Assembly (NCBI GenBank): GCA_963735595.1
Contig: CAVTLK010000001.1
Location: 128,001 to 192,000, forward strand
Direction of reading: 5' to 3'
Length of the DNA: 64,000 bases
Source: an uncultured delta proteobacterium
GTDB taxonomy: Bacteria; Desulfobacterota; Zymogenia; Zymogenales; Zymogenaceae
Each line of letters opens with the position of its first letter. The first letter of the stretch is position 1. The translations under genes and the position numbers were made by a program. Under the pieces are notes generated by a model that did no database searches, had not been told where the DNA came from, and saw nothing but the letters and a program-made list of their open reading frames with translations. This document shows positions 23,701-33,866 of this stretch, one piece after another.

Positions 23701-23775
23701 TGGAGCCGGAGGGGAGGGTTGAACTCCCGACCTGATGATTACGAATCAACTGCTCTACCACTGAGCTACTCCGGC
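23701..23775 (-). tRNA. tRNA-Thr (anticodon CGT)
   Basis: GCCGGAG-TA-GCTC-AGTGGTA-GAGC-A-GTTGA-TTCGTAA-TCATC-AGGTC-GGGAG-TTCAACC-CTCCC-CTCCGGC-T-CCA cloverleaf; one U-U pair in the anticodon stem; TTGACA upstream at 23816-23821 (-). Confidence 0.95.
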
Positions 23776-24515: not shown

Positions 24516-25566
24516 TTACACCCTGGCAATCGGAGACGCGAGCCGCACGCCCGCCTCTTCCAGGGCCTTCTTAATGGCGGTGTTGGCGCTGTGGCGCAGG
24601 CGAAAATACTGAGGTATGTCCTCGATCCAGTAGACGATACGAAACGTTATCGAGTAGCTGACGAAGTCGTAAAGATCGCAGCTCGCTCCTTTCCTCACGC
24701 CGGGGGTCTTGTCCAACGCCTTTGTAATCAAGATCCGAACAGCGCTGGAGGGTCTCGGCGTTTGTTTCGGGCGCCACGGCCAGGTACAGCAGCGCGCGGC
24801 GGGCCCTCCGGGCGGACAGGTTCTCCATGAGGCTGTTGGAAATCTCACTATTGGGGATCAAGACACGGGTATCCTCAAAGGTGCGCATCGTCGTCATGCG
24901 CAGTCCCACCTCTTCCACCTTCCCCTCGATCCCCTTATAAACAATGGTATCGTCCATCTGGTAGGGTTTGTTCATAAAGATGTTGAAACCGCCGAACATC
25001 TGACCCAGGCTTTCCTTGGCGGCGATGGCAATAGCGGCGCCCCCGACGCCAAGGCCCGTGATCAGGGATAGGACATCGTAGCCCATCTCGGACAGCAGCA
25101 CGATAATGACCATGACCCAGATGCTGACCTTGACCATCGCGCTGATGATCGGGATGATCTGGTCGTCGAGCTTCGTCTCGGTCTTGGAGGCCAGCGGTCT
25201 GAGAAAGGCCTCCACGAGCACGTCAAACATCCTGGTGACGAGCCAGGTTACGGCCACCAGGAAGACAATAATAATGACCTGACCGACGAACTTGGTCACC
25301 GGCGGGGTCATGACAAGGATCTTGAGGGCGAAATAGACGCCGCCCACCAAAAACAGGAGGGTTATCGGTTCTTCGACGAAGTCGATGATCACGTCGTCCA
25401 GGCTCGTTTTGGTTTTTTTGGCCATCTTCCTGGCGCTGTTCTTAAAGAGGTAGTAGATCATCCGCGCGAGAACGGCGGCGCCGATGACGATCAAAAAGAA
25501 GTAGAGGTAGCGGTCCATCGTGTTTCCGAAATAGACCTGGGACATGAAATTACCAAGCGATGTCAT
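24516..25566 (-). CDS. MscS family mechanosensitive channel; frameshift near 24740
   Basis: LITGLGVGGAAIAIAAKE, GKVEEVGLR, IPNSEI; C-terminus in another frame. Confidence 0.85.
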
Positions 25567-25626: not shown

Positions 25627-26791
25627 CTATATCCGAATGGGATATCTTCCATATTCTTTGACCGCCTCCATCATGAAGCGGATATTGTCGACCTTAATAT
25701 CGGAATGAGAGTTACAGGGGCCGAGGATCAACCCGCCGCCTTCCCCGGCCTTTCCGATAACCTCCTTGACGTGAGCGTGCACCTCTTCCCGCGTTCCATG
25801 GGAAAGGACGTGAGCGATATCGAGGTGTCCGAGCAGCGAGAGCTTGTGACCGGCGATACTGCGCACTTCGGCGAGGTCCACGCCGGCCGTCGGCTCCAGC
25901 GAGTGGTGTCCGTCAAATCCCCATTTAATGAAGTAGGGCAACAGAGGAATCGTCCAGCCGTCGGTATGAATGACGATCTTCAGGCCCTTCCGATGGGCGC
26001 GATCGGTAATCTCGGTAAACGCCTTTCCGTACAGTTCGTCCATCAGCGTCGGGTTTAGCATAGGCCCGGACTTATAGGCCATGTCATCGGAGTAGATGAT
26101 GCCGGGAAGGCCCGCGTCGGCCGAGGCGTCGACGCATTTAAGATACCAGTTCTTGTTGTATTCGATGGCCTCTTCGATGAACGAGCGTTCCTTCTTGAGA
26201 AGCCGTGTAAACGTCGGGAACCCGAACGGCTGCCAGATGTTCTCCGAGATACCGTAGAGGTGAGATCCGAAGAGGTAGATGTCGTTGCCGAATTCCTTCT
26301 TGATCGTTCTCGTTGAATTGGAACATTTTTTCGGGAAAGCGCTCCCAGTTCTTCTTGGGCAATCGGCGCCAGTCCTCGGGCGTCCTGAGCATTCCGTCTA
26401 TGTACATCGGGGTGTCCATATTACCGTAGCCGTCGTCGACTATCTTATAGAGGCGGCCGAAGATATCGGTCATGTGTCGGGAATCCTTGATGAGGAATAT
26501 ATTGGCATACAGGGCCCAGGTTGCGTCATATCCCATGACCACGTCGGAGGTCAGCTTCTTGAACATGAATTCCCGCACGTCCCGTTCGAAAAGTCCCAGC
26601 CGGTTGAGAAGGGGGGCCGTGGCGGTGATGATCGGTGCGGTGATTGGGTTTATAAAATACTTGTAGGAATTATCGGGTGTCTCGCCGAGGATGTCGTAGA
26701 TGTGTTTCTGCACGTCGATACAGGAGATAGTGGGAACGACATCGGGTTCCCGATGGGCCAACGCCGTTTTGACGCGTTCGATCCTGTCCAT
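25627..26791 (-). CDS. Uroporphyrinogen decarboxylase (URO-D/MtaA-like) family protein; frameshift near 26310
   Basis: ERVKTALAHREPDVVP; SDDMAYKSGPM; HTDG; LEPTAGVD; GGGLILGPCNS. Confidence 0.8.
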
Positions 26792-27040
26792 GGAGCACCT
26801 CACTTATAAAATATAGTATATAAGTATCCCTTATACTCCTATTTGTGGATAGAGGCCTTTCATGAAGCGGCTTGCCTCTCATGTATCGTAGCAGGTCGGC
26901 AGCTGCTCCCGTGGCGATGATGTACACAAAAGCAAATAACCGGCAGCAGTATATCATTTCTCATTCAAACATACAATTATTTTACCGGGAATCTCACGCG
27001 CGGGCGAAAAAATATTACTCGGTGTACGGTGGAAAACTAT

Positions 27041-27068
27041 TTGACATATTCTTTATTTCGTATACTAT
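27041..27068 (+). promoter_or_regulatory. Sigma70-type promoter for the riboswitch leader
   Basis: TTGACA-N16-TACTAT, ~9 nt upstream of the RNA motif. Confidence 0.6.
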
Positions 27069-27076
27069 GATATCAG

Positions 27077-27194
27077 TTCTCCGAGCCACATCACCTGTGG
27101 ATCGTCGGCGTACGGTGCGCCGCGTAGCTCTATGGTGACTGGCCGATAGGGTTCGGTTGGAAACGGCCGGGCCTCCCGTGTTTGGAAAGGAGGA
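27077..27194 (+). ncRNA. Moco-family riboswitch candidate lacking P3 (tungsten-cofactor/Tuco-type variant)
   Basis: CTCCGAGCCA..CACCT...TATGGTG..TGGCC-GATAGGG..GAAA..GCCTCCCGTGTTTGGAAAGGAG matches the moaA-type motif; P1 TTCTCC/GGAGGA sequesters the SD of ATG 27200. Confidence 0.85.
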
Positions 27195-27546
27195 AAACCA
27201 TGATGTCGAGACTCGCCTCGCGTAGGAAGCATTCCAAGGGCCTTAACAAGCATTATTTCCCACCTCCGATATGATATCGGGCTCTCCAGAAAACCTGACA
27301 TAACAGGGCATTTCAGACGATGAAGGAGCGTCGGTAATCGACCGAACGTTATAGGGAAGTTGTGTGTCCGAAGCATCGGCTCACGCCAAATTCCGATGGC
27401 GCTTCTTGTTACTTCGAAGTCTGAAATGCAGACGGGTAGTTTCTGCCCTCGATGCGACCGTATGATTGATCTCGTGAAGAGATCAGTGAATCATCGGTGC
27501 GCATGCGGCGCAGACTTTTATAAACGATGACATGGAGGGTAAGACT

Positions 27547-29160
27547 ATGAGCCATATATCTGCCAAAAAGACAGCCGATGAAGATAAGAGCAAAGAATTT
27601 GTCGTCTCTAAGAGCCCGGCGACGGGCAAGGAACTGGGCGTGTCGAAGTTGAATACTCCCGACGACGTGCGATACGCCGTTGAGAGGGCCAGAAAGGTGC
27701 AGCCGCTATGGGCCGCAACGCCGATTAAAGAGCGGTCGCGAATAATGATACGGGTTCGCGACTATATTGTCGAACATGCCGATGAAATCGCGCGAACCGT
27801 CAGTCTCGATAACGGCAAGACCGTGACGGATGCCATGGTCGCCGAGGCGTTTGGGTCGGCAATGGCGGCAGATTATTATGCGAAGAATACCAAGCGCCTG
27901 ATCAAGGATAAGGGCATAAGGCCCGGCCCTCATGATGATGGCGTATAAGAAGAGCAAGATCATCCGAGTACCGTGCGGCGTCGTCGGGATTATTTCACCG
28001 TGGAATTACCCATTTACGATTCCGTTTGTCGAGATCGTCATGGCCCTCATGGCGGGAAATGCGGTTGTGCTAAAGGTCGCCACCGAGACGCAGCAGGTCG
28101 GCCGGGCACTCGAGAAGTGTTTCAACTCGGTCGGGCTGCCCGAAGGGCTTTTCACCCACGTCAACCTTCCGGGAAGGATCGCGGGAGACGCGTTCCTGTC
28201 GGCGGGTATTGATAAGCTCTTTTTCACCGGGAGCGTCGGCGTCGGCAAGGAGTTGATGGCCCTGGCGTCGCGGACACTGACGCCGCTTTCGCTGGAGCTG
28301 GGTGGAAATGATCCCATGTTGGTGTGTCCCGACGCAAACGTGTACCGCGCCGCAACGGGTGCGGTATGGGCCGGATTGTCAAACTCCGGGCAGACCTGCG
28401 CCGCGGTGGAGCGGATCTACGTTCATAAGGACGTCTATGATCCCTTCATGGATCTGCTCGTGAAACAGGTAAACGCGATTACGGGTTGGATCGGACGGTT
28501 TTGACATCGATATCGGGGCGATGACCACCGAATGCGCAGGTGGAGACGGTAAAAGAGCATATTGCCGACGCTCTGGACAAAGGAGCGGTTATCGCCGCCC
28601 AGTCACAGTGTCCGAAAAACTCCCCGGAAACTTCCTGCCGGCGACGCTCCTGGCCAACGTCGATCATTCGATGGCCGTCATGCGGGAAGAAAGTTTCGGG
28701 CCGGTGCTCGGCGTCATGAAAGTCGATTCCATGGAACAGGCGATCGGACTTGGCGAACGATTCGAATCTCGGGACTCACCGCTTCGGTATGGTCGAAGAA
28801 CCGGAAGAATGCCGAATCGCTGGCACGGAGGATACAGTCCGGCGTCGTCATGATAAACGATCACATGATGAGCAGCGGCCTGTGCCGAGACACCCTGGGG
28901 CGGATTCAAGGAATCCGGGCTCGGACGAACGCACGGAGAGCTTGGAATGATGGAGATGACCCAGCCGATATGCATCGTCCACGACTATCTGCCCGGCGTT
29001 CAGCGAAATATGTGGTGGTATCCGAGCGGTAAAGGGAATATACGACGGGATAAAGGGAATGATGGAGTTCCTGTTCTCCCGAAGCCTCGGCAAACGCCTG
29101 GCGGGAGGGATCAAGGTCACTATGCTATTTATGCGCTCATTTACAAAAGAGCGTGGCTGA
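27547..29160 (+). CDS. NAD(P)-dependent aldehyde dehydrogenase; several frameshifts
   Basis: SPATG, ISPWNYP, FFTGS, LELGG, GQTC, EESFGP and WGGFKESG-like motifs spread over adjacent ORFs; RBS GGAGG. Confidence 0.85.
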
Positions 29161-29171
29161 TAACAATGGCA

Positions 29172-29220: not shown

Positions 29221-29526
29221 CTATGAACGGGTTGATACGCCGTAGAAACCTCGGACTGGACCAGTTTACTCTGGGAATACCGGAGACGTATATTCATATA
29301 TATTTGTACGATGCCATACTACTACAGGAGGTTATCTGATGTTTCTGGCGAATCACAACCCTCATGTCCGTCAGGAAGACCGATGTCCGGATATTGGCCT
29401 TCCAGACGCGAGACCGAACCGGGCGTATCCCCGGCACGTGTCAGGTATTTGGCTGGCGCACCATTTCAATCGTACGTGCGGATCGGCTGAAACTAATAAC
29501 GGTAATACGATGAGGCGAGGCACACG

Positions 29527-31314
29527 ATGACGACGATGGTAACTGTCACTATTAATGACCGGGAAATCAAAGTGAAGGCGGGGATAACGATCCTGGAGGC
29601 CGCCCGTGAGGCTGGAATTTATATCCCTACACTTTGTGATCACCCCGCGGTCCTTCCGACCGGGGCCTGTCGAATGTGCGTGGTAGAGGTGCTCGGGCAA
29701 CGTAACCTGCAGAGCTCGTGCACGTTTCCGGTAACCGACGGGATGAAGATCGATACGGAATCGAAGCGGGTGAACGGCGCCCGAAAACTGATCATTGAAA
29801 TGATCTTTTCGGAAAGAAATCATTACTGCCCCTATTGCGAGATGAGCGGCAGCTGCGAGCTTCAGGACATGGGCTACCGGTACCGCCTCGATCACTGGGC
29901 GTTTCCCACGTTCACGAAGGCCTATCCGCTGGATGCTACGCACAAGCATTACCTGATGGACCATAACCGGTGTATTCTGTGCGGAAGATGCATTCGTGCC
30001 TGCAACGACCTTGTCGCCAATCACACGCTGGGATTAGGACAGCGTGGAAGTAGGACCCTCGTCGCAGCCGACGGAAATGCCCCGCTCGGAGAATCATCCT
30101 GCATCTCCTGCGGAACATGTGCCCAGGTGTGCCCGACGGGAGCTCTTTTTTACAAACGGAGCGCCTATATGGGGCGGGACGCCCTGACCGAAAACGTCAA
30201 GAGCACCTGCAACCGTTGCAGCGTCGGCTGCGGCACCCGGGTCGTAACGCGCGGCGGGAACGTCCTGCGTGTGATGGGCGATTGGGACGCCCCGGTAAAT
30301 AAAGGTCTATTATGCACGATGGGCCGTTTCGATCTCCTCTACGATACGCGTCAGAGGGTAACCGCGCCCCTCTTGCGGTCTGAAGGAAGGCTCGAAGAGA
30401 TAAGCTGGGAAAAGGCAATCGAAATCGTGGCCGGCCGAATCGGCGCCGTAAAGGCCTCGGATATAGGGGTACTTGCGGGCAGCCACTCGTCCAATGAGGC
30501 GCTGTACCTCCTTAAGAAGCTTTTCAAACAGGAGCTGAAGGTTTCCAATATCGGTACGATAACTACTCCAACGCCCCGGATATTCAGCAAGCCGCACGGT
30601 AGTCTCGGCGATATACTCAAGAGTGATATCATTCTGGTCGCCGGCTCCGATCCGGGCAACAACCAGCCGGTAGCTTCATTTATCATCAAGCGCGTCGTGG
30701 ACAAGGGGGCACGGTTGATCGTGGTTGACGACAATGAAAACGGTTTGTCTCCGTTCGCCTTCATGACTGTCGGTATGGCCGACATAGGAAAGGCGATCGA
30801 AATCGCCGGGCGGGCCGACAATCCCGTTATCGTGTACGGGTCCGGTGTATCCGAGGCGGCCGCGGTCGAACTAAAGAAACTGGAAGATAGGGTAGAATTC
30901 ATCAGGATCGAGTCGGGGGTCAACACAACGGCCGTAGCGGCTCTGGGACTGGACAACGGCTATGACCCGGCAACGGCTAAGCTCCTGTTTGTCCTGTTGG
31001 GTGAAGAAGATTGCCGGGAAAACGATCTGCTTAGGGCTGTTCCAAAGGATACATTTGTCGTTGTGCAGGCAAGCTATGCGTCTCCGATCACCCAGCGGGC
31101 TGCGCTCGTGTTGCCCGGCACGATATGGTCGGAACAGAGTTGTACCCTCACGAATTTCGAAGGAAGGGTTCAGAAGGTCGCTCAGGCGGTGGAGCCCGTC
31201 GGGCAGAGCAAGCCCGACTGGGAGGCGCTGCAGCTATTATCGACAGCACTCGGCAGGAAGATCGCGGTATCCGTAGATACAGTCACGACAGAAGTGGTTG
31301 AGTCACTGAAATAA
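29527..31314 (+). CDS. hoxU: HoxU/NuoG-like Fe-S subunit fused to a degenerate molybdopterin-oxidoreductase domain
   Basis: IPTLC...GACRMC...C; HYCPYC...C; CILCGRCIRAC; CISCGTCAQVCP; CNRCSVGC; TNFEGRVQ...PDWE. Confidence 0.75.
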   Translation: MTTMVTVTINDREIKVKAGITILEAAREAGIYIPTLCDHPAVLPTGACRMCVVEVLGQRNLQSSCTFPVTDGMKIDTESKRVNGARKLIIEMIFSERNHYCPYCEMSGSCELQDMGYRYRLDHWAFPTFTKAYPLDATHKHYLMDHNRCILCGRCIRACNDLVANHTLGLGQRGSRTLVAADGNAPLGESSCISCGTCAQVCPTGALFYKRSAYMGRDALTENVKSTCNRCSVGCGTRVVTRGGNVLRVMGDWDAPVNKGLLCTMGRFDLLYDTRQRVTAPLLRSEGRLEEISWEKAIEIVAGRIGAVKASDIGVLAGSHSSNEALYLLKKLFKQELKVSNIGTITTPTPRIFSKPHGSLGDILKSDIILVAGSDPGNNQPVASFIIKRVVDKGARLIVVDDNENGLSPFAFMTVGMADIGKAIEIAGRADNPVIVYGSGVSEAAAVELKKLEDRVEFIRIESGVNTTAVAALGLDNGYDPATAKLLFVLLGEEDCRENDLLRAVPKDTFVVVQASYASPITQRAALVLPGTIWSEQSCTLTNFEGRVQKVAQAVEPVGQSKPDWEALQLLSTALGRKIAVSVDTVTTEVVESLK

Positions 31315-31326
31315 GGAGAAGCCAAG

Positions 31327-31872
31327 ATGGCAAAAGTTAGAGTAGCGACGGACTGGCTGGCGGGTTGCGCTGGATGTCACATGTCGTTTCTGGATATTGA
31401 TGAGCGTATAGTGGGATTATCGGAACTGGTTGAATTTACCTCGAGCCCGATAACGGATCTCAAGCATCCGCCGAAAGAAGGCGTAACGGTGGGCATCCTG
31501 GAAGGCGCGATCTGCAACACGCATAATATCGAAGTTGCAAAACAAATGCGCGAGCGGTGCGATATCCTGATCGCCGTCGGCGACTGCGCCACGTTCGGCG
31601 GAGTCCCCGCAATGCGAAATCTCGTAGGTACTGATGAAGCCCTGCGAAGGGCTTATATCGAAACGGAAAGCACAGTTGACGGGATCATACCGGATTCCGA
31701 AGAGCTCGGTAAACCCCTGGACATGGTCACCGGGATCGATGCGGTGGTCAAGGTCGATCTATTCATCCCGGGTTGTCCGCCGAGAGCGGACGCATTCTAT
31801 TACGCGCTGTCGGAGCTGCTTGCGGGACGCACACCAATAGTTTTACCGGCCGAGCTATTTACCTACGATTAG
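31327..31872 (+). CDS. hoxY: Group 3 [NiFe]-hydrogenase small subunit
   Basis: WLAGCAGCHMSFLDIDE, GDCATFGGVPAMRN, IPGCPP. Confidence 0.85.
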   Translation: MAKVRVATDWLAGCAGCHMSFLDIDERIVGLSELVEFTSSPITDLKHPPKEGVTVGILEGAICNTHNIEVAKQMRERCDILIAVGDCATFGGVPAMRNLVGTDEALRRAYIETESTVDGIIPDSEELGKPLDMVTGIDAVVKVDLFIPGCPPRADAFYYALSELLAGRTPIVLPAELFTYD

Positions 31873-31884
31873 AGGAGAACACGT

Positions 31885-33312
31885 ATGGGTCGTAAGATAA
31901 CCATAGAACCGGTAACACGCATCGAAGGTCACGGACGTGTAACAATACATTTGGATGATCAAGGCGCGGTAGAAAAAACTTTTTTCCATGTTGATGAATT
32001 CCGCGGTCTGGAAAAATTCTGTGAAGGTCGTCCGCATTATGAAATGCCGCAAATTACGCAGCGCATATGCGGAATATGTCCGATCAGCCACCACCTGGCG
32101 GCCTCCAAGGCATGTGACGCCGTTTCCCGTGTGGAGCCTCCGCGACCCGGCAGATTGCTGCGCGAGCTAATACACATGGGCCAGTTTGTCCAATCTCACG
32201 GCATGCATTTTTTCCACTTGGCGGCTCCCGACCTGCTGTTTGGCTTCGACTCAGATCCCGCAACGCGCAACGTTTTCAGGATAATTAAGGAAAATCCCCA
32301 GTTAGCGCTGAAGGCTGTTACCATGCGGCGTTATGGTCAGCAAATAATCGAGAGGCTGGGCGGAAAACGTGTTCATGCTAATTTTTCGGTTGCCGGCGGA
32401 GTTAACGCACCACTGACAGATGAGAATCGTAAGGCAATTGCATCAGAGCTAAAGGCCATAATCATAATTGCCCAAGAGGCAATCGGCATAGCGAAAGGAT
32501 GGCTTGAAGCCAATGAGAAGCTGGCGGCCGAGTTTGCTTCGTTTCCGTCAAACTATATGGGACTGGTGGACGAAGAAGGAGGCCTCCAGCTGTACGACGG
32601 CGAAATCCGCGCCAGAGATGCGCACGGTAACTTCCAGGCGCAGTTTAAGCCGGAACACTACCTGTCGTTCATCGGCGAGCACGTGGAGCCGTGGTCGTTC
32701 CTGAAGCATCCATACCTCCGTAAGATGGGCTTTCCCCAGGGTTTTTACCGGGTCGGCCCGTTGGGCAGGCTCAATGTCATCGATAAAATAGGCACACCGC
32801 TTGCCCAGGAGGAATTCAAGCTTTTCAGACGAATCAACGGCGGGATGCCCGTTGAGGGCTCTTTGTATTACCACTACGCGCGAATGATAGAGGCTCTGTA
32901 TTGTCTGGAGCGTATCGGCAGCCTGCTGGACGATCCGGACATTATGTCCAATAACGTCCGCACGTATCCCCCGCTGGAAATTGTTCCCGGCCAGGGTGTG
33001 GGCGTCATTGAAGCGCCGCGGGGAACGCTTTTCCACGACTACGGCACGGATGAGGACGGCATCTTGACCAGGGTCAATCTTATCGTCGCCACCGGAAACA
33101 ACAACTGGGCGATGCATACCGCCGCGGGGGCAGTTGCCAAGGCATACGTTGACGGCACAAAGCTCACGGAGGGAATGCTCAACATGGTGGAAGCGGCCAT
33201 TCGGTGTTACGATCCATGCCTGTCCTGCTCAACGCACGCGATCGGCAAGATGCCGCTGGTCGTAACGCTGGTTGCCGCCGACGGGACGGTTCTCGATCGT
33301 ATCAGCCGTTAG
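31885..33312 (+). CDS. hoxH: Group 3 (3d-like) [NiFe]-hydrogenase large subunit
   Basis: TRIEGHG, L1 RICGICPISH, EAPRGTL, L2 RCYDPCLSCSTH plus C-terminal extension. Confidence 0.92.
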   Translation: MGRKITIEPVTRIEGHGRVTIHLDDQGAVEKTFFHVDEFRGLEKFCEGRPHYEMPQITQRICGICPISHHLAASKACDAVSRVEPPRPGRLLRELIHMGQFVQSHGMHFFHLAAPDLLFGFDSDPATRNVFRIIKENPQLALKAVTMRRYGQQIIERLGGKRVHANFSVAGGVNAPLTDENRKAIASELKAIIIIAQEAIGIAKGWLEANEKLAAEFASFPSNYMGLVDEEGGLQLYDGEIRARDAHGNFQAQFKPEHYLSFIGEHVEPWSFLKHPYLRKMGFPQGFYRVGPLGRLNVIDKIGTPLAQEEFKLFRRINGGMPVEGSLYYHYARMIEALYCLERIGSLLDDPDIMSNNVRTYPPLEIVPGQGVGVIEAPRGTLFHDYGTDEDGILTRVNLIVATGNNNWAMHTAAGAVAKAYVDGTKLTEGMLNMVEAAIRCYDPCLSCSTHAIGKMPLVVTLVAADGTVLDRISR

Positions 33313-33380
33313 AGGTATCAAATACAATCCCGGGCGGATAGGCCTTTGTGCGTATCCGCCCGCTTCTTCTCAGTAAGTAC

Positions 33381-33866
33381 ATGGGCAACAGGACGATTAT
33401 CATTGGATACGGCAATATAGATCGCGCGGATGACGGCGTTGCACTTTCCATTATCAACGAACTGAGGCGACGGCGAGGGAGAGGGGGACTGGAAGAGGGC
33501 GATACCGGGCTTGGCGATCTCAACGATCGTGCCGATTCGATCTTCATGCCCCAGCTGATGCCGGAGATAATGGAAAGGCTTACGGGTTATGACAGAATAA
33601 TCTTCGTCGATGCTCATGTCAGTCCTGATACGGAAGACATCAACTGCACGGCGGTTTTGCCGGAGTATTCGGCGCCCTCATTCACCCATCACATGACGCC
33701 GTCAGCGTTCTTGGCGTTTCTCGAGACCTTGTATCATTGCGAGCCGGAAGCATACGTGGTCTCGGTACTCGGACACGAGTTTGACTTTCGGCGAACCCTT
33801 TCGCCTCGGGTGCAGGCGCTCGTTCAAACGGCCGCAGATACTATCCTGGAATTGATGGATCGGTAA
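33381..33866 (+). CDS. Hydrogenase maturation protease
   Basis: IIGYGNIDRADDG, FVDAH, THH. Confidence 0.85.
   Translation: MGNRTIIIGYGNIDRADDGVALSIINELRRRRGRGGLEEGDTGLGDLNDRADSIFMPQLMPEIMERLTGYDRIIFVDAHVSPDTEDINCTAVLPEYSAPSFTHHMTPSAFLAFLETLYHCEPEAYVVSVLGHEFDFRRTLSPRVQALVQTAADTILELMDR

Follow-up and report, generated by a model that had tools for sequence, protein, structure and literature searches.

A P3-less Moco/Tuco-family RNA ahead of an aldehyde dehydrogenase gene suggests a tungsten-cofactor-sparing regulon in Zymogenaceae

Results

A P3-less aptamer behind a conserved promoter

The stretch of DNA analysed here (the window; 64,000 nucleotides of an uncultured delta proteobacterium of the family Zymogenaceae, assembly GCA_963735595.1, contig CAVTLK010000001.1, positions 128,001 to 192,000; genome G000) carries on its forward strand a sigma-70-type promoter, a Moco/Tuco-motif RNA (RF01055), a short leader ORF, a long leader, a gene for an NAD(P)-dependent aldehyde dehydrogenase (ALDH) and a group of hydrogenase genes. 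The earlier note had claimed a promoter followed by a Moco motif in which GGCC leads straight into GATAGGG, without P3, and had suggested a check against the Rfam model; our analysis with cmscan bears out these points. The RNA (27067–27208, plus strand) scores 68.8 bits (E 1.8e-14) against a cut-off of 36 bits, the gathering threshold; the P3 columns are deleted in the alignment, and GGCC (27141–27144) abuts GATAGGG (27145–27151) at a P2–P4 junction (27141–27151) with no P3 stem. In the core of P1, 27077–27082 pairs with 27189–27194, P4 is capped by a GAAA loop (27160–27163), and P1, P2, P4 and P5 all form in a fold run from the expected start site. Among 15 motif copies (14 ALDH leaders and one Hox leader), two-sided changes occur at 10 of the 27 predicted pairs; this covariation stems from P2 and P4, P1 and P5 being almost invariant. 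The tetraloop-receptor region of P2 reads CCUGUG...UAUGG, compared to CCUAAG...UAUGG in the RF01055 model, a variant common to most ALDH copies of the family.

The promoter (27041–27068, plus strand; TTGACA-16-TACTAT) would start transcription near 27074–27075. Taken alone, the pattern is at chance level (1 found vs. 1.2 expected in shuffles), and it gains weight because TTGACA with a −10-like hexamer is conserved upstream of 8/9 leader copies scanned; the only one without it is the second motif of a tandem. The window RNA is a genuine member of the RF01055 family, of the P3-less subclass, in a 5' leader position with an expression platform.

The aldehyde dehydrogenase gene and its neighbours

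The ALDH gene (27547–29160, plus strand; PF00171 by profile match) follows a Shine-Dalgarno (SD) sequence GGAGGG at 27534–27539. Intact orthologs in relatives have 535 aa, and that of G001 aligns to a solved succinate-semialdehyde dehydrogenase (SSADH) over 450 residues, with PWNYP, LELGG and GQTC, which we take to be the catalytic Asn, Glu and Cys motifs of the ALDH superfamily. No curated NCBIfam cut-off for a named ALDH subfamily (SSADH, BADH, others) is reached: the best subfamily scores are 423–450 bits vs. 521 needed for PRK09407, and the best matches are SSADH-like.

The reading frame of the window copy is split, and PF00171 matches it in four fragments. Compared with the intact G001 ortholog (85% DNA identity), the 1.6-kb gene has about nine indel sites, mostly single-base insertions, several of which duplicate a neighbouring base; the extra bases are absent from contigs of related organisms, and substitutions against G001 distribute 41:32:157 over codon positions 1:2:3. 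Frame changes were found in 5/32 query ORFs tested, including the window ALDH, whose indel count exceeds most. The G000 assembly consists of five long contigs, in which genes neighbouring the ALDH are also split: a URO-D-like gene (window 25627–26803) falls into two ORFs and is intact, at 391 aa, in G003, and an MscS gene (24571–25566) encodes 331 aa vs. 359 and looks frameshifted, as would be consistent with assembly errors around the locus. A tRNA gene lies farther upstream on the minus strand (23704–23775). As judged from these alignments, the indels of the window ALDH are likely assembly errors rather than decay.

Downstream on the plus strand (29527–33866), follow genes for a HoxU/NuoG-like subunit, the small and large subunits of a [NiFe]-hydrogenase, and a likely maturation protease. 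The HoxU/NuoG-like protein (29527–31314; 595 aa) contains a molybdopterin-oxidoreductase-like domain; in G001 and G005, a [FeFe]-hydrogenase subunit takes the place of its gene. Weak promoter-like sites lie at 29140–29167 and 29265–29294 of the window, and in the interval between ALDH and hydrogenase, TTGACA followed by a −10-like hexamer is present in G005 and a comparable site in G001 (by eye). Since the hydrogenase after the ALDH in G001 and G005 thus seems, from sequence, to have its own promoter, co-transcription is not general. We rejected a single riboswitch-led ALDH–hydrogenase operon as the invariable arrangement, given these intergenic sites and the other neighbours found in G002, G006 and G007; co-regulation of the ALDH with the window hydrogenase genes is uncertain. 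We also dropped the notion of a single NuoEF module common to the Hox-like subunit and formate dehydrogenase (FDH), as the genome has five NuoF-like genes and nothing singles this arrangement out.

A leader ORF and a long leader

The earlier note had taken the ALDH as the first substantial gene after the motif; the plus-strand PF00171 match at 27547–29160 agrees with this, but a 24-codon ORF (MMSRLASRRKHSKGLNKHYFPPPI, ending FPPPI; 27200–27274, plus strand), conserved in the genus, precedes it. The SD of this leader ORF, GGAGG (27189–27193), is the P1 3' strand itself; it sits 6 nt before the ATG and has a predicted unpaired probability of 0.06 in the folded aptamer. The length of the ORF is identical in 5/5 same-genus copies (35 codons in G005), FPPP is invariant with synonymous changes at the F codon and all three P codons, and the stop swaps between TGA and TAA at one fixed position across the same-genus copies. 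Over the whole frame, pN/pS is 0.70 vs. 0.60 in a control frame; one sediment contig shows four synonymous changes and one R-to-K change, another several replacements. A small hairpin over the last codons and the stop (27266–27280) is predicted in 5/5 same-genus copies (−5.8 to −8.6 kcal/mol), and G002 has a second copy of motif and leader ORF in front of a Hox-like operon.

The leader ORF is absent in G006, G007, G008 and the metagenome locus L194, where the motif–ALDH linkage persists. These four instead carry a pyrimidine strand 60–75 nt past P1 that pairs with the P5/P1 strand; such anti-aptamer pairing is significant in all four and also at the Poribacteria locus (p ≤ 0.013 against shuffles), and is not significant in the window's genus (p 0.16–0.80).

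The 272 nt between leader ORF and ALDH (27275–27546, plus strand) are likely untranslated and, by promoter and terminator scans, hold no conserved promoter or intrinsic terminator; they may be a Rho target, and a rho gene is present in G000. The earlier note regarded an ALDH promoter between motif and gene as contrary to its reading; no sigma-70- or sigma-54-like site was found in 27200–27546 or in three same-genus leaders. The sigma-70 scan was likewise negative in G005 and G006 and gave single matches, at non-aligned positions, in the G007, G008 and L194 leaders; the sigma-54-like scan was empty in 8/8 leaders. Two terminator-like sites in the window leader (27384–27401 and 27498–27512) were dismissed as weak and non-conserved, and G007 and G008 have hairpins with short U runs downstream in their leaders. 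The C-over-G bias after the aptamers of the window's genus is mild (background fraction 0.04–0.15) and also present after aor copies, and we rejected it as a Rho marker because it does not discriminate. Predicted accessibility of the ALDH SD shows no consistent difference between bound-like and free-like folds. A 56-codon ORF with Cys motif CPRC...CACG (window 27360–27530) stops shortly ahead of the ALDH SD. G001 retains the Cys motif, though not the start, and G002 and G003 lack the motif; the ORF is probably due to chance.

Linkage of the motif to ALDH genes

The motif precedes the ALDH in 8/8 family genomes that have the ortholog, i.e. G000 and all seven of the nine family relatives that carry it. 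From motif to ALDH, the family leaders span 303–379 nt (304–379 nt in the seven relatives) with no gene between; G005 has motifs in tandem, and the motif contig of G008 carries the ALDH N-terminus only. No Mo/W gene, of the kind whose presence in relatives the earlier note regarded as contrary to its reading, separates motif and ALDH in any family locus. L194 adds a further case from a metagenome; a metagenome pattern scan returned three loci, two of which have a leader identical to that of G008 and were excluded as non-independent. Other ALDH paralogs of the family have a motif nearby in 0/5 loci. A search of 301 genomes of the phylum gave five close ALDH orthologs outside the family, none with a motif beside it; their genomes have AOR (aldehyde oxidoreductase) genes in 5/5 cases and no RF01055 match. 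Because these five non-family orthologs are motif-free, the link is lineage-bound within the phylum.

The earlier note had proposed a survey of genes downstream of P3-less motifs for ALDHs. We searched with one exact pattern and obtained 120 loci from 23/64 parts of the collection; 80 had 1.5-kb flanks, and removal of one duplicate and three without an ORF left 76. The first gene encodes an ALDH in three of the 76 (L084, L097, L110), compared with a chance expectation of about 0.1 (a rough estimate, with about three ALDH genes per genome); two are from other phyla, and L097 belongs to the window's family and is non-independent. The first gene of the remaining loci is mostly for W/Mo uptake or synthesis. 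The 40 short-flank loci yielded 24 ORFs and no ALDH, a set from which genes after long leaders would escape. In L110/G041 (Actinomycetes) and G069 (tandem motifs), the ALDH ATG lies 9–10 nt past the P1 GGAG. Among 31 genomes of Actinomycetota relatives, the motif is beside 2/25 ALDH matches, 23/25 being without it; among 31 genomes related to the Poribacteria one, two had any motif at all and no further motif–ALDH case turned up. Since the ALDHs of the family, Actinomycetota and Poribacteria sit on separate branches (quick tree; the Poribacteria row is partial), the data suggest that ALDHs have been captured repeatedly by the motif.

Other target classes were seen in passing. P3-less motifs precede CBM96/FlgD-Ig secreted proteins in 4/76 loci (L092, L108, L119, L133) and ECF S-component-like fusions in 6/76 (L091, L115, L117, L124, L134, L148), both likely to be uncharacterised W/Mo uptake parts. 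In Actinomycetota relatives, back-to-back divergent motif pairs (L199, L200, L212, L250, L252, L256–L259, L261) stand ahead of genes for two large secreted proteins, each of roughly 500 aa or longer; in many Actinomycetota copies (L074, L079, L202–L204, L206, L208 and others) the motif lies directly on the SD of a P-loop protein of about 270 aa that has no Pfam match at 1e-5 and is often near a tupA copy.

Sister copies and predicted polarity

G000 has five called RF01055 copies, before the ALDH, a group-1 [NiFe]-hydrogenase, tupA, tupB-moe-moa and aor. A sixth, motif-like copy before fdnG is uncalled by the Rfam model and counted by orthology only, being identical to the G003 copy at 106/110 positions. 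We compared 34 copies, a subset of the family matches plus two Poribacteria copies. A terminator overlapping P1 is found in 8/8 aor/fdnG copies, with all five P1-strand bases, a U7–9 tail and predicted energies of −21.9 to −30 kcal/mol, and in 0/11 ALDH/Hox copies. Of the tup copies, 5/9 have a distinct terminator farther downstream, as is usual for OFF switches, and several tup copies have their start codon 6–7 nt after P1, resembling the ALDH copies; HYD_G009 and TUP_G000 show partial terminator-like P1 overlap, which blurs the ON/OFF split. Because the 5' arm of the aor/fdnG terminators uses the P1 strand, ligand would prevent termination, and the aor and fdnG copies are predicted to be ON, and the ALDH/Hox copies OFF, with cofactor. 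The earlier note described Moco RNAs as OFF switches, which is too broad in the face of these 8/8 terminators; for the ALDH switch itself we consider the OFF sign probable.

In 8/10 family genomes the motif stands before an observed ORF for the small subunit of a group-1 [NiFe]-hydrogenase, and in G000, G001 and G003 this locus comes immediately behind the fdn operon. Motif-led hydrogenases also occur in two Actinomycetota genomes, one of which may have an internal promoter; G063 is not a clean case, with a promoter-like site between motif and hydrogenase (by eye). At G000:C1:685100–685600 (L267) and in L002, a Sec-containing fdnG operon is led by a motif-like copy whose terminator overlaps P1, and the operon that follows is a group-1 [NiFe]-hydrogenase with its own, terminator-free motif: neighbours predicted to be FDH-on and hydrogenase-off. 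At L003 (G000:C5, near 171.5 kb), the tupA motif is followed by an ORF with a GTG start whose end seems to overlap the tupA start (by eye), which would allow translational coupling to tupA; its frame is lost in some relatives.

Tungsten and molybdenum genes of the host

The earlier note had also asked for aor and tup genes, and both are present. AFOR_N matches give five AOR-family genes in G000 (four in G041 and six in G042). TupA-like and TupB-like proteins of G000 score 251 and 188 bits, both below the NCBIfam equivalog cut-offs, and each gene stands behind its own motif copy; TupA-like carries the TTTS motif and is 79% identical to a motif-led TupA of Candidatus Zymogenaceae. A search for ModA gave no clear match in G000, which has two Sec-type FDH-family genes and one Mo enzyme of the xanthine-dehydrogenase family. 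Members of the Zymogenaceae are described as fermentative anaerobes with the Wood-Ljungdahl pathway (10.1101/2021.03.22.436540).

Discussion

The reading that we favour, with a probability of about 0.6, is a tungsten-cofactor-sparing regulon in which the P3-less switch turns a metal-free ALDH off when the cofactor is plentiful. The RNA would sense the tungsten-pterin cofactor, and the ALDH would act on AOR substrates and stand in for tungsten aldehyde oxidoreductases under cofactor scarcity; we infer both the ligand and the substrates. This reading, which the earlier note had put forward, gains support from the independent motif–ALDH links beyond the phylum and from the reverse design of the aor/fdn copies.

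In the window's genus, bound cofactor would close P1 over the SD and leave the 24-codon leader untranslated, ribosome-free C-rich RNA would then allow Rho to stop transcription in the 272-nt leader ahead of the ALDH, and without cofactor the leader ORF would be translated, possibly with pausing at Pro-Pro-Pro, to permit read-through into the ALDH. We hold this leader-ORF-gated Rho step to be slightly less than an even bet. In the other family genera, the pyrimidine strand would pair with the P5/P1 strand in the absence of ligand, with the same sign of control. A reciprocal regulon may result, with the W-enzymes AOR and FDH-N ON with cofactor, and tup, moe, moa and the cofactor-free counterparts ALDH and [NiFe]-hydrogenase OFF. 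That the whole tungsten economy runs on one oppositely wired aptamer class, with an OFF arm acting through polyproline leader ORF, ribosome pausing and Rho, is a speculative extension that we think unlikely in its entirety.

The ligand could also, or instead, be the Mo-cofactor or metal-free molybdopterin, or the ALDH could serve some other need when pterin enzymes fail, the OFF sign being unchanged. The correlative relation of P3 absence to W metabolism, the one Mo-family enzyme of G000 and the SSADH-like, below-cut-off best matches of the ALDH are compatible with this; nevertheless we consider it improbable, given the TTTS-bearing TupA without a clear ModA, the five AOR genes, and the recruitment of several ALDH branches, which fits a general need for aldehyde oxidation. 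Quite improbable, in our estimate, is an inversion of the signal by the long leader, whereby the cofactor would turn the ALDH on, e.g. for clearing aldehydes from acid reduction by AOR. The leader ORF or the freed pyrimidine strand could act as an antiterminator, G007 and G008 have their downstream hairpins with short U runs, and folding does not separate states of the ALDH SD; against this, the ON design of the family is a different one and is absent at ALDH/Hox copies (8/8 vs. 0/11), P1 covers the ALDH SD where the ALDH follows directly, and ALDH copies look like tup copies in their start-codon spacing.

We regard it as very improbable that the ALDH of the window strain is a recent pseudogene, the switch being vestigial or serving only the downstream hydrogenase genes: the roughly nine indel sites in 1.6 kb exceed those of most genes tested, but the substitutions fall mostly at third codon positions, the indels are mostly single-base insertions that in several cases double a neighbour, adjacent genes of the five-contig assembly are split too, and the inserted bases do not occur in contigs from related organisms. 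Hardly credible is control of the 24-residue peptide alone, as a small regulator with the ALDH transcribed separately, a reading that accounts for the strong SD of the ORF and for the constancy of its length, FPPP and stop within the genus but not for the lack of the ORF in G006, G007, G008 and L194 where motif and ALDH are linked, the lack of a conserved internal promoter, or the duplication of the leader before the G002 hydrogenase operon, as expected of a portable cis element.

Should one aptamer class indeed run the whole tungsten economy, tungsten supply would decide between formate and H2 export, and between ferredoxin and NAD(P) as acceptor of the electrons from aldehydes. Evidence for tungsten-cofactor riboswitches rests largely on gene context, and the targets known so far serve uptake and synthesis or are W enzymes; the family offers matched natural pairs, in which one genome holds both an ON copy with a terminator and an OFF copy built on the SD, so that ligand and polarity are testable by reporters. 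The motif also flags uncharacterised ALDHs whose function likely overlaps that of AOR. The sparing arm would extend the logic of B12 and metE to tungsten, and under it traces of tungstate should redirect the carbon and electron flow of sediment anaerobes, between AOR and ALDH and between formate and H2.

Relation to known systems

The riboswitch family is known, and a motif–ALDH link was not found in print in the open literature covered. The usual contexts of P3-less RNAs are molybdopterin (MPT) synthesis, uptake and tungsten-cofactor (Tuco) enzymes: according to Regulski et al. 2008 (PMC2408646), P3-less RNAs are nearly always found beside genes for MPT synthesis or for Tuco enzymes, and the relation of P3 absence to tungsten is given there as a correlation. 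No ALDH domain was found among the targets in the portion of its supplement covered, and PMC10043782, over the portion covered, adds no motif target. The window RNA shares with this P3-less subclass its sequence and structure, the missing P3, tup and AOR genes in the host, and further copies ahead of tup, moe/moa, aor and fdh; its target, in contrast, is a pterin-free enzyme (PF00171) rather than MPT synthesis, W/Mo uptake or a Tuco enzyme, and its P1 would control a leader ORF that lies 350 nt ahead of the gene. With the E. coli moaA OFF switch, as presented in PMC2408646, it shares an SD inside P1, and the ALDH ATG layout of G041/G069 is alike.

The supplementary table of the same paper places tandem Moco RNAs of Syntrophomonas wolfei (Swo-1-8/-10) before a [FeFe]-hydrogenase, i.e. 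likewise before a pterin-free alternative, there to formate dehydrogenase; the target is a hydrogenase there and an ALDH here, and the table assigns no polarity. In Eubacterium limosum, P3-less copies are reported before WOR1, tupABC, iron transporters and focA, with fetABC1 and focA up under W limitation (PMC11725836). That Tuco regulon thus also joins a W aldehyde oxidoreductase and tupABC with genes unrelated to W, but the non-W targets described are transporters, with no ALDH among them, and not cofactor-free isoenzymes. P. carbinolicus has copies before three aor genes (PMC3543383), and the MOCO regulons of Sun 2013 comprise synthesis and transport, cofactor-free isozymes appearing in the sections covered for B12 only (PMC3766115).

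Cobalamin riboswitches are described as repressing B12-independent isozymes such as metE (PMC2211319), and the logic proposed here is the same: the cofactor represses an enzyme that dispenses with it. RNA class and ligand differ, and AOR and ALDH are analogous enzymes with different electron acceptors, so that a swap between them changes energetics too; W-AOR and NAD ALDH are reported to be interchangeable in Aromatoleum (PMC6365974). Finally, Rho termination gated by riboswitches (thiM, ribB) and by uORFs (tnaC, speFL, mgtL) is presented as established in PMC12360218. The window leader would share their principle, that occlusion of a ribosome-binding site or translation of a leader decides Rho access, and would differ in that a metabolite aptamer gates a dedicated polyproline leader ORF.
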